Below, one piece after another: positions 2,661 to 63,561 of a stretch of 64,000 nt of DNA. The DNA comes from Nematocida ausubeli. Its lineage: Eukaryota. Both the position numbers and the translations under genes were made by a program. Below the pieces are notes generated by a model. The model saw nothing but the letters and a program-made list of their open reading frames with translations. It was not told where the DNA came from and searched no databases. The stretch covers positions 1 through 64,000 of the forward strand of contig NW_026515636.1 in the NCBI RefSeq assembly GCF_000738915.1. The letters are read 5' to 3'. Position 1 is the first letter of the stretch. Each line of letters starts with the position of its first letter.

Positions 2661-3221
2661 ATATAATTCATTTTGAATGGGTTGCACTTTTAGCCTTTCT
2701 CCATTCAAGGGCGAATAGCTAACGAGGCTTCGGGTAGTATGACGAAAGACATCTTTCAGATGCTTCTGTTTTTGTCTAGAAAACTCTATTCTGGCCGGGC
2801 ATAAATAAAGGACAGGAAATAAATTTATTCTATATTTTTGTATGATTGAGTGTAGCGATTCATAAAGAGAGAAATAAGCTATACTTCAAAACAAATTTTT
2901 AGTCTTAAGATTTATATTTGAATATAACCCGAACCCGATGTATCTACAACAAAATAGCGAGAAAACTATTTTATCGCATTTTCCTAACATACTTAAAATG
3001 TAAAAGCTTTTCATTAACATAGGTTTATTAAAATTAAATAAATTTCTGACTTAACAAACCTGCAGTTATATCCATCCTCTATACCAACTACGAAGAAGTA
3101 GAATTAAAAATAAAACAAAAAGAAAAGAATTTTAGCTTTACTTCACATACAAGTAAAAACACAGCAAAACAGAGCCAACTGCACTTTATTTTCTTGAATA
3201 TAATCTGAATAACCCAAGGCC

Positions 3222-4658
3222 CTAGCTAGATGCAGAACTATATATTCTAGAATTATGTCTTTCCAACACCTCTTCTGCACGGGTCAATGCATCACTTTTC
3301 ACAGAAACAACTTCTTTCTGCTCTGCATACTTGCTTTCTGCTGCATCGTATGCTATGTACGCTTCATGTCTTTCTATTGCCCCAGATATAACGTCTTTCT
3401 GTAGATTACAGATATCACTACTCTTGCGAATAAACCTTTCTAGACTTTCTATATGCTTTGTGTGCCCTTCTAATATCTTGTTTAGTGCCTCTGACTCTTT
3501 TCCTTCGTTATTCTTTTTAAAATACTCTGCCTCTTTTTCTCTCACAAAAAGCTGCAACTTTTCTTTCTCATATATTTTTTTATACATCTCTAAAGTGTAC
3601 TCTAATATAATAATTAAATTTTTCTCCATGTCTACTACACTTGAATAGTATCTGGCGCTGTCTTCTCTTGAATTATAAACAGTTTTTTGCATTTTTTCTA
3701 TGCATTTAAGACGCGGCTTGTTCTTTTCTTTTTCGGTTTCTAGGATATTACTTAGCTCTTTTATCTCTTTCAGCAGCACGCCACTACTTTTTATTTCGCT
3801 GCTGCACTCAAGGCGTATGGTAGGGGCTATTTGAGCATTTATAGGTGAGGTGCAGTACTTGTTAACCTCTTGTGTTATAGAACTTAATTCTTCATAAACC
3901 GAATCATATTCCCACTTAGACTCTATATAACTTGCTTCCACCCTCGCAAACTCTTTATTCTTATTCTGAAAGATACTTTGAGATAGCTCTGCGGCTCTAC
4001 CCAGCTCTTCTAGACAGGCTACCTCTTTTTCATATTCTTTTTCAGCTATATCCACAGCCTGCTTAGCAAGATCTCGCTTTCTTTTCTCTTCTTCTATAGA
4101 AAGAGGGGGTTTTCTTTCGTCTAGCATAGGTGCATCTAACAGATCTGAACTTCCACAAATAGTGGCATCACTAGTTTCTTGTCTATCTAGCGCGTGTTCG
4201 TCTTCTGTTTTTTCACTCTTTCTCTCTTCTATTTCTTTCCCATTCAACCCAAGCACACCAGTGTTTGTCCCCTCTATTTTTTTTTCTCGTTTACCTTTGC
4301 TAGTCTTTTCTTTCAATTTCTCTGCTGCCTCATCATCTGCGCTTACACCTACTGTGCTTACACATGCGGTATTTGCGTTTGTCTTAGATGTGCTGTCACT
4401 TTCTGAGCTGACTGTATCTGCTTTCTTTGCTTCTTTTTTTACTGCGGGCTGGTTTCTTATCTTCCCCCTTTTCCTTCCCATACTGTGTAAAGAAGGAGGT
4501 AATGCGCTCTTTTTCCCACCCTGCCATGCATTCTGCAGAGCATCTGTGCGCACGCCCAAATATATTCCGAATACTGCCAGTCCAAGTATAATAATGCCAA
4601 CAGCAGAGACTTTTGCGATAATATCTTTCTTATGCATTGCCTCCATCCAGGCTTTCAA
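3222..4658 (-). CDS. N-terminally membrane-anchored coiled-coil protein (lineage-specific family)
   Basis: 478 aa ORF with a TM segment near the N-terminus and a disordered linker. AVDIAEKEYEKE, REKEAEYFKK and AYIAYDAA blocks are shared with 5512..6894. Confidence 0.8.
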   Translation of the reverse strand: MKAWMEAMHKKDIIAKVSAVGIIILGLAVFGIYLGVRTDALQNAWQGGKKSALPPSLHSMGRKRGKIRNQPAVKKEAKKADTVSSESDSTSKTNANTACVSTVGVSADDEAAEKLKEKTSKGKREKKIEGTNTGVLGLNGKEIEERKSEKTEDEHALDRQETSDATICGSSDLLDAPMLDERKPPLSIEEEKRKRDLAKQAVDIAEKEYEKEVACLEELGRAAELSQSIFQNKNKEFARVEASYIESKWEYDSVYEELSSITQEVNKYCTSPINAQIAPTIRLECSSEIKSSGVLLKEIKELSNILETEKEKNKPRLKCIEKMQKTVYNSREDSARYYSSVVDMEKNLIIILEYTLEMYKKIYEKEKLQLFVREKEAEYFKKNNEGKESEALNKILEGHTKHIESLERFIRKSSDICNLQKDVISGAIERHEAYIAYDAAESKYAEQKEVVSVKSDALTRAEEVLERHNSRIYSSASS

Positions 4659-5511
4659 CTATTCTCTTCTTATATGTGCGCATAAATTAATCATTTAGAT
4701 TCTTGCTATAATATTGACCAGTAAATTTGCATATTTATATTTCATTATAAATATGACACGAATAGCCCGAGTTTTTACCCCGTGAATAAAATTTAATAAA
4801 AGTGAAAATGACATCAGGGGTTTATTTATTACCCCATACATAGCCAGAAATTACTTGCACACAAGTGTATTCTCAGATAAAGCCCTGATATGCACTGCTT
4901 CTCATCACATACAGACCACTCAGACATGGAACTACAGCGTTCTCTACCACTCTCAGCCTTCATAGCATTTTTTAGCTCTTATCTAAATTAAAATATTTAT
5001 CTTTTAGAAATCCTCTCTCTTTCTTGTTATTCCTGATATTTATGGAAGCACAGAATAAAACGTGCACAATGAGTATAGCTCCACTGCGTGTGGTGCTAGA
5101 TAGCCTGCACTTTGATACTCTATGCCTTATATAATCTAAATTCTTACACATTTCTCTCATTTATGCTTTAAACCATCTCTATATAAAATAGATCATTTGA
5201 ATTCTTGTTCTAGTATTACTCATACAAAGAGCATCTCTGTACCTCTTAGCAAGCACAACTCAAATAGCTAGTTCGAATCCTTGGCCATAAATAAGTTTTA
5301 GTAAAAGTAAAATAAAAATAGCATAAGAGGTTTAGTTATTACTACACACAGCTCAAAATTACTGCCAGCACACACCCCATATTATCCGATTCCTAGAGAC
5401 CTGAGGAACTCTGCTTCCTAGCGCATAAGGCTGCTTAGACATGACACTGCTGCATTCTCTGCTGCATTCTCTGCTGGTTATTCGGGTTATTTGGGTTATA
5501 TGCGATAAAGA

Positions 5512-61375: not shown

Positions 61376-62121
61376 CTTTAGACCCTTCTTTTTGAAACAG
61401 CGCAGCCCTGCCCTCTAATCTATTGGCTGTGCCCAGAAAAGCAGGTGCTAGTAGAGAATCTGTTCCCCAAAATCAGCTAGTCAATATACAGAGAGCGTAT
61501 AAGTGCGCGCAAATATTTTAAAATTTTCTAAGTGTACAGCTGCCTTCTCTCCTATACTTTAATTTCTAGAATATTTTTGCATAAAAATTAGCTATAATTA
61601 TGATTGAGCGCAGATATGTGCCTGCTTTATTATGTAAGAAATAAATGCAGCTAAATATCAGGGAAAATAATAAACAAGAAAATAGGATGTTGCATACTAT
61701 AGCCTTTAGTATAGATACATATACGAGTGCTTTCCGTGCACTTAAAGCTTAATAATTGCAGCTTTTTAGGATATACTTGTTTTATTTATTCTGCATGTGC
61801 ATGCACTCAAGTAAATATGAGATAGAGAAATAGTTTGGATCTTTTAGATAAAGACTTTTGTATAAGATGTGTATGGGCGCCTAAAAAGCCATTATACTAA
61901 GAATAATCACATCCAGTGCAATTACTAGTGTATTACACAGGTAGGCCAGATCCCAGATATTCTAAGTACAGAAATGGGTCTTTTTGCAAGGTTTATATAT
62001 AGAATGTAATAGGATTTATTAGCGGTGCAACCTGTCGGCTATATTTCTATTTAGGCTGCGCAGTTTCTTTGCAGTAGAGTATAGCTAGCTTGCATTTTGG
62101 GTGCTTTTATATTATGCATCA

Positions 62122-63561
62122 CTATTTAATCAGGGAATGCACTGTCGGATTGCCTGGTTTCGGGTTTCTTGGGTACATATCAACTGAGTTATTGGCAGGT
62201 GGAAAAGACGGCGCAGCTGAATTCCAGTTAGGAGGCGGAATGTATGACTGGGTAGGAGAAGGAACATACATGCCCTTAGCTGGTGCATATCCTGGGCCTC
62301 CAGAGTATGGAGGCTGTTCTCCCAATGGCCTATTTAAAGTGTTCTCTGGCACACTGTTATATGATGGCAGCGCAGAATACGGCGGTGGCTGCGTTCCTGG
62401 ATAGGCAGGTGCTCCTCCGAATGAAGAATTCTGCGATGGAAGAGATGAGTATGGAGGGACTTCTCCTACTGGTCTATTCAAAGGACTTGCTAGACTGTTG
62501 TTATATGATGGTGGCTGCTGGCTTGGATAGGTAGACACATCACCTAGTGGGTTTGTCTGGGAAGGGTGTGCAGAGTATGGAGGTGGCTGCTGGCCTGGGT
62601 AGCTATTTGGAGCTTTCCAGGGAGAAAGCTGTCCTGCAGCTGGGTCGTACAGAGGTGGCTGTTTACCATACATATGATTTGCAGGTGCTTCTAGAGTATT
62701 TGGATAACTCACATAAACTCCATTATGAGCCACAGGATTGCCTGCAGTATCTAATAACACAGGAGGAAATTGCGTGGTTGGGTGGCCAAATAGCTTTTCC
62801 TGTATGTGTATTAAGGACTGGCTCATGGCACGAAGCATTTCAGTAATTGTTACCATATTTCGGGACATTTGGTCATTCATGGCGATGTTCTGCTTGTTTA
62901 TGGTGTCAAGACCCTCCATTCCAGACGCTCCGTCAATTTCAGGAGTGTCATCTTTTATGGGGTGAATTTTCTTTATTACATATCTCTGCTCTGGCTTTAA
63001 GAGATCACATTTGGTTAGCTTTAGGTTTAGCCCAATGTATGTTTCTGATGGCTGGTGTGGGTTGGTTGTTGCCTGCATAGGGACTATTGTTAAACACATA
63101 TTTGTGCCTGCCATTGACATAAACATATACTGGTTGTCTTTTCTTATAAAAATCAAGTGCCACAGCTGTGCATTTGAGTTATTTGGAAGCTTTGCCCCCA
63201 TTGATACATACTGGCCTTTTATGCCGGTCATGTACTCTTGCTCATTGTTCTGGAATGTAAATATCTGCGCTTGCTTTCCATCACTTCCACTTTTATCATA
63301 TAGTTTGGACATGTCCTCCATTGTAAAGACCATGGTCTCAACGTCAATTGGGTTATTTATCTCATTCGGGTTATTTCCATATGACTCTCTGTGCTCACTG
63401 TCTTTTTGATATTTCACTAGCTTGAACTCGTCTGCTGATATGTACCTATCTCTCTGGTACATTGCAGGCTCGATCATAACGTTCTCCAGCACTGCAAGCG
63501 ACTTAGCAACCATTAGCAGCGCAACAAAAAGAGCTCTGCTCGCGTGTCTTCTATACTTCAT
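62122..63561 (-). CDS. Secreted ricin-B-lectin-like protein with a Pro/Tyr-rich repeat tail
   Basis: Signal peptide, QIFTF, QLWHL, NMCLTI...LTKC...EQRY and C-terminal QPPPYS repeats. Confidence 0.78.
   Translation of the reverse strand: MKYRRHASRALFVALLMVAKSLAVLENVMIEPAMYQRDRYISADEFKLVKYQKDSEHRESYGNNPNEINNPIDVETMVFTMEDMSKLYDKSGSDGKQAQIFTFQNNEQEYMTGIKGQYVSMGAKLPNNSNAQLWHLIFIRKDNQYMFMSMAGTNMCLTIVPMQATTNPHQPSETYIGLNLKLTKCDLLKPEQRYVIKKIHPIKDDTPEIDGASGMEGLDTINKQNIAMNDQMSRNMVTITEMLRAMSQSLIHIQEKLFGHPTTQFPPVLLDTAGNPVAHNGVYVSYPNTLEAPANHMYGKQPPLYDPAAGQLSPWKAPNSYPGQQPPPYSAHPSQTNPLGDVSTYPSQQPPSYNNSLASPLNRPVGEVPPYSSLPSQNSSFGGAPAYPGTQPPPYSALPSYNSVPENTLNRPLGEQPPYSGGPGYAPAKGMYVPSPTQSYIPPPNWNSAAPSFPPANNSVDMYPRNPKPGNPTVHSLIK

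Follow-up and report, generated by a model that had tools for sequence, protein, structure and literature searches.

We analysed a window of 64,000 nt from the genome of Nematocida ausubeli, and all counts and position statistics given here come from this single 64-kb stretch. Open reading frames (ORFs) of at least 100 amino acids (aa) cover about 63-64% of the window. A recognisable block of genes at 30.5-44.5 kb encodes a protein kinase, a GPN-type ATPase, an S8-family ribosomal protein, chitin synthase, Tsr1, a histone deacetylase and an SMC protein; many ORFs of the window have no Pfam match, and several of these belong to paralogous families. The product of ORF 53778-54563(-) is 100% identical to a protein named N. 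ausubeli, and homologues of two other ORFs carry this label as well. Scattered across the locus, within ORFs as well as between them, is the 11-mer TTCGGGTTATA, a real and strongly over-represented double-strand DNA word of N. ausubeli.

An earlier note on this DNA had counted 15 exact copies of the word, and all of them were found with identical starts and strands, 10 on the plus strand and 5 on the minus strand (Table 1). Dinucleotide-preserving shuffles of the window (n = 100) contained 0 copies, and an order-4 Markov model, which is conservative because it was trained on the window itself, predicts 0.245 copies. In the k-mer scan with this model, TTCGGGTTATA and its sub-words were the top enriched dispersed k-mers at k = 9 to 12. 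There are 27 sites with at most one mismatch (0.57 expected), and the classes with 0, 1, 2 and 3 mismatches hold 15, 12, 38 and 163 sites versus 0, 0.33, 12.6 and 132 expected. The 7-nt core TAACCCG is present in 22 copies versus 1.69 expected; by hand tally TT precedes 19 of these cores and TA follows 16, and the 11-mer is therefore the natural unit. Its third position is C in all 15 exact copies, T being the sole variant seen there, and the twelfth position is T in 11 of them. Sites occur at a frequency of about one per 2.4-4 kb. Among the near-matches that had been named, those at 5481, 14102, 51048, 51705, 53623 and 63365 are one-mismatch sites; the one given as 46587 is a one-mismatch copy too, although its true start is 46593, and those at 29894, 46958 and 59983 are indeed near-matches but carry two mismatches each. 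One-mismatch sites at 5490, 7052, 9002, 24653 and 57412 were absent from that list.

The copies are distributed unevenly with respect to genes. Position statistics are based on at most 22 sites, some of them clustered. Four of the 15 exact sites fall within well-supported ORFs, though ORFs make up 63% of the window (p = 0.004). A stop codon is no more than 300 nt away from 12 of the 15 non-coding core sites (background 0.37, p = 0.0009), in agreement with the previous remark that many copies stand past stop codons, and a start codon is that close to only 2 of them (background 0.34). Distances from a site to the adjacent stop are 20, 23, 105, 108, 118, 147, 147, 161, 195, 196, 230, 291 and 584 nt. 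Site density is 1.52 per kb in convergent gaps, four of seven of which are occupied by the word, 0.49 in tandem gaps, 0.43 in divergent gaps and, by simple division of 7 ORF sites by about 40.5 kb, about 0.17 in ORFs. Beside 3' ends the word shares the strand of the mRNA in 7 cases and lies opposite to it in 6. If it is read, it is thus read as double-stranded DNA, and it is a DNA-level signal that is strand-neutral relative to the adjacent mRNA. The rate of sites in 3' flanks is similar for housekeeping genes (2 of 7) and orphan genes (7 of 24; hand tally).

Many copies do not stand alone. By hand tally, 9 of the 15 exact sites carry a degenerate partner at 6, 9 or 10 bp and the other 6 are single; the arrangements are TTCGGG-TTCGGGTTATA for the 6-bp spacing, GGTTA-TTCGGGTTATA for the 9-bp spacing and TTCGGGTTATA-TCGGGTTAT for the 10-bp spacing. 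Around the 15 sites, likeness to the 9-mer unit is highest at offset -9, in 4 sites, and at offset +10, in 3. Tandem Repeats Finder reports tandems at 5476-5499 (period 9), 33674-33702 (period 9), 45009-45032 (period 10) and 47080-47099 (period 9), and thereby bears out four of the short degenerate tandems that had been noticed by eye, while 48268-48284 reads TTCGGG TTCGGGTTATA. Similarity between copies may also extend well beyond the word: 29749-29783 and 33670-33704 are alike at 80% over 35 nt, 33663-33707 and 47060-47104 at 71% over 45 nt, and left extensions of at least 5 nt are common to 9 site pairs versus 0.55 expected. Within 700 nt, close inverted pairs occur four times as (-,+), in the form TATAACCCGAA...TTCGGGTTATA, and never as (+,-) (permutation p = 0.02). 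They span 99-664 bp and have TA at the outer edge of each, and in this they recall miniature inverted-repeat transposable elements (MITEs) or solo terminal inverted repeats of TA-inserting DNA transposons. However, their interiors are unrelated: an all-against-all blastn comparison of the four pairs matched the word alone, up to 16 nt, and revealed no shared feature inside. Moreover, most copies are single or in direct tandems, and the window holds no matching transposase. We therefore rejected a MITE or transposon terminal inverted repeat. The earlier note had reached the same verdict on transposons from the premise that the flanks are unrelated; the unrelated interiors do rule out a MITE, but the premise itself does not hold, since similarity extends over 16 to 45 nt in subsets of copies, and the 31-mer that surrounds 45009-45028 is found elsewhere.

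The copies within ORFs were examined separately. In line with the earlier count of four copies in coding sequences of accessory genes and none in those of housekeeping genes, four exact copies (11004, 12845, 14952 and 53935) are located in long ORFs without a Pfam match and none in ORFs with a Pfam domain; a further exact copy, 48274, lies in a doubtful 115-aa ORF, and six more one-mismatch or core copies are found in ORFs. A link to small ORFs was rejected, as the short ORFs near some word sites look random. ORF copies use two reading frames and both orientations, encoding DITR three times, NPN-type peptides five times and FGLY once, and hence do not represent a protein motif. Comparison with homologues places site 11004 exactly at the border of a 12-aa indel, and there the closest homologue (78%) has Q for R, from which we infer, at the level of protein comparison, a CGA-to-CAA (CpG-to-CpA) change. 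DITR at 14952 is retained in a 75%-identical homologue, and YNPN at 53935 is lost in homologues of 45% and 38% identity. The 1268-aa orphan gene 13711-17517(-) also has nested coding tandem repeats in its 3' part at 13773-14132, with a 15/45/90-nt period at 13773-13954 and a 9-nt period of NSPN type at 14047-14132; the 9-nt array is 21 aa shorter in the 75%-identical homologue. ATTAGGGCTAT was considered as a second dispersed word and mostly rejected, with 4 of 7 copies of TAGGGCTA sitting in one coding minisatellite.

We also compared positions 29501-49500 with contigs from four runs of one sample, whose RNA nature is a guess and whose strain is 1-2% diverged; only the covered parts of spacers were taken as evidence. 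Two RNA-like contigs, of runs X14 and X15, bridge the site at 45106-45116, which places this copy in the 3' untranslated region (UTR) of 45134-45844. Contigs end near 33622, 45073, 47223 and 48435, 45-150 nt before the next site; this is at most a weak hint, because all of these ends come from one sample. The 31-mer 44999-45029 recurs in another contig with unrelated flanks, so its double copy of the word exists at another locus. A further contig, aligned up to 44810, goes on with a double copy of the word (by eye), where the window has an unrelated 14-nt patch of equal length at 44811-44824, and agreement resumes after it. An allelic contig would mean that the word was placed there as a patch; the contig may instead be a third paralogue, and the paralogous segment of the window near 49550 resembles the window version rather than the contig's double copy (by eye). 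From these few cases, copies seem to arise by short patch duplication or replacement, not by point mutation, and then to decay by transitions. In the same region a 64-nt segment is repeated at 75% identity (44700-44763 and 49439-49502), with weak likeness running about 90 nt further; each copy is upstream of or overlaps the start of a short minus-strand ORF, and a decayed gene family with a common 5' region may explain the repeat. None of 80 metagenome loci with a chitin synthase homologue (38-65% identity) carries the word, which is no more than a trivial negative control.

Table 1. Copies of the word and related elements in the window, with their position relative to ORFs.
Feature	Position	Strand	Context
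Exact TTCGGGTTATA, ATCGGG before it (6-bp partner)	2923..2933	-	Convergent gap, 291 nt past stop of 3222-4646(-)
9-bp tandem GGTTA TTCGGGTTA TTTGGGTTATA; one-mismatch copies at 5481 and 5490	5476..5500	+	23 nt past stop of 5512-6894(-)
One-mismatch copy TTCCGGTTATA	7052..7062	+	
One-mismatch copies	9002(+), 24653(+), 57412(-)		
Exact copy and 10-bp partner TCGGGTTTTA	11004..11024	+	Within ORF 10165-11172(-), encodes DITR
Exact copy	12845..12855	-	Within ORF 11938-12924(-), 69 nt from ATG, encodes FGLY
Exact copy	13119..13129	+	197 nt upstream of ATG of 11938-12924(-); inverted pair with 12845
Coding 9-nt minisatellite of TTAGGGCTA and TTCGGGTTA units	14047..14132	+	ORF 13711-17517(-), NSPN repeats; core sites 14104, 14122
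Exact copy	14952..14962	+	Within ORF 13711-17517(-), encodes DITR
Exact copy	29750..29760	-	Divergent gap, 382 nt from ATG of 28900-29370(-); akin to 33670-33704 element
Exact copy	30403..30413	+	160 nt upstream of ATG of protein kinase gene 30571-31542(+)
9-bp degenerate tandem, last unit exact at 33693	33674..33703	+	Convergent gap, 105 nt past stop of GPN-type ATPase gene 32334-33590(+)
Exact copy	35592..35602	+	161 nt past stop of chitin synthase gene 35761-38043(-)
10-bp double copy: exact at 45018 and ATCGGGTTATC	45009..45032	-	108-118 nt past stop of 45134-45844(-)
Exact copy	45106..45116	+	20 nt past stop of 45134-45844(-), just upstream of AATAAA
One-mismatch copy TTCGGATTATA, TTCGGG before it	46593..46603	+	1400-nt spacer 45845-47244
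9-bp tandem TTCTGGTTA TTCGGGTTATA, exact at 47090	47080..47100	+	147 nt past stop of 47245-47847(-)
TTCGGG TTCGGGTTATA, exact at 48274	48268..48284	+	195 nt past stop of 48477-49172(-); within doubtful 115-aa ORF
One-mismatch copy TTCAGGTTATA	51048..51058	+	16 nt upstream of ATG of ORF 50069-51031(-), TATAACC-to-ATG orientation
Exact copy then CCGGGATAA	51788..51798	-	196 nt past stop of 51992-52651(-); one-mismatch copies near: 51705(-), 51048(+)
One-mismatch copy CTCGGGTTATA	53623..53633	-	147 nt past stop of 53778-54563(-)
Exact copy	53935..53945	+	Within ORF 53778-54563(-), encodes YNPN
Two-mismatch copy ACCGGGTTATA, core intact	59983..59993	-	Convergent gap, 230 nt past stop of 60221-61375(-)
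One-mismatch copy TTCGGGTTATT	63365..63375	+	Within ORF 62122-63561(-), encodes NNPN

Other features of the window are as follows. There are three paralogous orphan families at 20-30% protein identity (22-2550/13711-17517/23155-25893; 3222-4646/5512-6894; 47245-58989), one of which consists of five small genes in a row at 47-59 kb. Two neighbouring ORFs (10165-17517; P0003 and P0010) have homologues of 75% identity, also labelled N. ausubeli, that occur together on a 14,662-nt contig of another strain, which suggests either a haplotype that has diverged strongly or a block of paralogues. At 21496-21614(-) a complete 5S rRNA gene (92.7 bits) is isolated among orphan ORFs, with no word copy nearby; it is the sole match in an Rfam search of the window, which returned no family for the word, and ARAGORN found no tRNA in the window. 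A known structured RNA or tRNA-derived repeat is thus ruled out as the source of the word. The 117-aa ORF 59134-59487(+) has only the helix-turn-helix (HTH) domain of a Mos1-type transposase (PF17906, E = 4e-14), with no catalytic part recognisable downstream and no link to the word, and is either a relic or a domesticated DNA-binding protein. ORF 57823-58989(+) contains coding 6-, 12- and 15-nt tandem repeats at 58609-58911 that give a Pro/Ala-rich C-terminal tail (PAPAPA...). Among short words, AACACGCGT has 5 copies window-wide, about 10-fold over the order-4 expectation, and AACACGC has 18; AACACGCGT includes ACGCGT, which is familiar from fungal cell-cycle promoters.

The word resembles several known signals. 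The yeast Reb1 core is TTACCCG, and sites of yeast Reb1/Nsi1/TTF-I-type Myb-like factors are tied to nucleosome-free boundaries and to roadblock termination. Like such sites, the word is short, nearly invariant, built of a C/G triplet flanked by T/A, present in both orientations and placed in the spacers of a compact genome. It differs from them in its length of 11 bp, in its TAACCCG core and in being read through by RNA-like contigs at one site; in addition, Reb1-type sites stand 100-200 nt upstream of starts, whereas the word is mostly found past 3' ends. TTACCCG is not enriched in the window (1 copy versus 1.78 expected) and all 22 core sites are TAACCCG, which excludes the yeast Reb1 site. 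Internal telomere-like sites are another comparison; these include TTAGGG for Tbf1/Teb1, GGTTAC pairs near late origins for fission-yeast Taz1, and the plant telobox. A single base separates TTCGGGTTA from TTAGGGTTA, which is one and a half repeats of the TTAGGG type, and the word appears in short phased tandems of GGTTA-containing units; the true telomeric TTAGGGTTA, however, has 0 copies in the window. The likeness to Reb1, Tbf1 and telobox sites drawn in the earlier note is consequently one of similarity, and the word itself is neither the Reb1 nor the true telomeric sequence. Short interstitial telomeric insertions have been described at repaired breaks in mammals, and here too there are tiny telomere-like units in a variable register of 6, 9 or 10 bp at unrelated loci, in two cases at the edges of replaced or deleted patches; unlike those insertions, the word is not the canonical repeat, and its density is very high. 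Telomere repeats of other microsporidia are TTAGGG, TTAGG and TTAG, as given in passages of two papers that do not give the Nematocida repeat (PMC13174016, PMC11592040), and the first of these treats TTAGGG as the form preceding the shorter repeats.

The word also has a superficial likeness to the microsporidian core promoter. Its other strand reads TATAA-CCC-GAA, an A/T-rich run followed by a C triplet, and the CCC-like or GGG-like signal of microsporidia is described as sitting immediately upstream of the start codon (Peyretaillade 2009, PMC2803860), with a 'modified CCC motif' mentioned elsewhere (Cuomo 2012, PMC3514677). That signal has a fixed orientation, while the word uses both, and no ORF of at least 50 aa starts 60 nt or less to either side of any of the 15 exact sites; among all copies, only that with one mismatch at 51048 is placed like such a signal. 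A directional CCC-type core promoter is therefore excluded. In the passages of the microsporidian literature consulted, signals are close to start codons or are poly(A) signals, and writing on termination, the CCC motif, telomeres and Myb factors gave no account of the word. In the literature that could be searched, no publication pairs the core word with Nematocida, and the string matches nothing but sequence listings without a connection, for example of primers. Wan 2022 (PMC9762603) has none of the terms motif, promoter, upstream and intergenic. Five candidate N. parisii promoter elements (Cuomo 2012, Supplemental Fig. S4) may include this word already.

The word is extremely specific and strand-symmetric, has partners in helical phase and prefers 3' flanks and convergent gaps, and this leads us to favour, tentatively and with a probability of roughly 0.4, the reading that the word is the binding site of a predicted sequence-specific double-strand DNA-binding protein that marks gene boundaries beyond 3' ends. 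The predicted protein would be of the telomere-repeat or Myb-like kind. It would dock on TTCGGGTTATA in spacers past the 3' ends of genes, where phased partners at 6, 9 or 10 bp would favour cooperative binding along a single helical face, and once bound it would serve as a chromatin boundary or as a back-stop against read-through, with no obligatory roadblock. Transcripts of the sister species N. parisii are reported to be discrete, with little antisense transcription despite the close packing of genes (Cuomo et al. 2012, PMC3514677); such a packed genome would require efficient separation of transcription units, and a boundary site fits discrete, non-overlapping transcripts of this kind. The earlier note had proposed a binding site that punctuates the genome, and this is supported in part: the signal is real, is at the DNA level, is enriched in spacers and near stops and is densest in convergent gaps. 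An obligatory polymerase roadblock is not supported, given the RNA-like contigs across 45106 and the four or five exact sites within long ORFs.

A number of observations weigh against a boundary site. Transcription passes the 45106 copy, as the bridging contigs indicate. Of 31 scored genes, 9 are followed by a core site in the first 300 nt after their stop, and the spacers beside the kinase, S8-type ribosomal protein, Tsr1 and histone deacetylase genes have no site. ORF copies are also far above chance, which is odd for a purely intergenic boundary signal. The loss in the 38-45% homologues and the CpG-to-CpA change in the 78% homologue argue for fast turnover. A scan of the 32 main ORFs of the window detected no Myb domain. 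Furthermore, neutral accumulation predicts the same order of density, with ORFs below promoter-bearing gaps and these below convergent gaps.

The last point leads to the alternative of a neutral or selfish micro-repeat. Patches of 11 to 45 nt would be copied in as exact units, would then decay, and would survive where constraint is lowest, without any host function. We regard this as rather unlikely in itself, but it is nearly as likely as the boundary reading, and it explains the flat mismatch spectrum, the ORF copies and the patch and indel cases better. The excess in mismatch classes 0, 1, 2 and 3 is about 15, 12, 25 and 31, the flat profile of exact birth followed by neutral decay, and an origin by point mutation is hard because random sequence yields 0.33 one-mismatch sites. 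Eight of the 12 one-mismatch variants are transitions, four of these being the CpG-decay forms TTTGGG and TTCAGG, in a genome with a CpG observed/expected ratio of 0.54. The longer shared units and left-extended pairs, the 31-mer at another locus, the indel edge at 11004, the double-copy patch seen by eye in a related contig, the use of two frames and both orientations in ORFs, and the climb of density as constraint drops all point the same way. Candidate processes include templated break repair, telomerase-like addition, short-tract ectopic conversion and relics of tiny mobile elements; however, the generating mechanism is not known, no donor element was found, the interiors of inverted pairs are unrelated, the only transposase trace is the HTH-only ORF, which has no link to the word, and the patch example is possibly a paralogue rather than an allele. 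That exact copies outnumber one-mismatch copies and retain CpG in a CpG-poor genome fits selection too. The two explanations are compatible, since copied patches could be what the protein reads. In a variant that we consider improbable, an 'internal telomere seed', exact patches of 11-45 nt would be written by templated copying and read by a telomere-type protein, punctuating chromatin or replication domains; the writing, telomerase-like or repair-templated, would go into spacers and occasionally genes, and a reduced genome would in this way punctuate itself throughout with a self-renewing variant of the telomere repeat.

Three further functions were weighed. An orientation-independent upstream regulatory element, such as an enhancer or upstream activating sequence, could bind a transcription factor that co-regulates neighbouring genes, many of them from fast-evolving orphan families. 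Intergenic enrichment, the use of both strands and homotypic clusters agree with this, as do the five candidate promoter elements mentioned for N. parisii spacers, whose sequences are confined to the supplement (Cuomo 2012, PMC3514677). In the divergent gap 29371-30570 each of the two sites faces the gene closest to it, with the ATG 160 or 382 nt away; site 13119 also lies upstream of an ATG (197 nt), and spacers holding a site are longer than those without (median 862 versus 542 nt; p = 0.02). However, four of the seven convergent gaps, which are expected to be without promoters, bear sites at the top density, few non-coding core sites are near 5' ends (2 of 15), and sites in tandem gaps are 750-1250 nt from the next ATG, so that we find this function doubtful. 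Still less probable is a replication-origin site bound by the origin recognition complex (ORC), or a cohesin or fork-barrier site, preferring convergent gaps. The peak of density there and the excess of (-,+) pairs would suit it, and yeast origins have paired inverted ORC sites that the word's pairs recall; on the other hand, copies occur within ORFs, and the frequency of sites is, to our knowledge, far denser than any known origin spacing. We give least credence of all to an RNA-level 3' UTR element for stability, localisation or the choice of poly(A) site: the copies at 5481 and 45106 are 20-23 nt past stops, and the latter is in transcript-like contigs just before AATAAA, but the word shows no strand preference, has no Rfam match and is also present in a divergent gap.

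Almost nothing is known about how neighbouring transcription units are separated and how chromatin is organised in gene-packed microsporidia, and the word offers a handle on whether gene-boundary factors exist in these organisms. Extrapolated to a genome of about 4 Mb, an extrapolation rather than a measurement, its frequency corresponds to roughly a thousand copies. The parasite has a tractable host, C. elegans, and the word could be used there as bait for its putative binding protein. Copies that appear to be born as exact patches provide a route to study the spread of a dispersed regulatory word, and if the word is only a neutral micro-repeat, it would still be a useful marker of an unknown mutational process.

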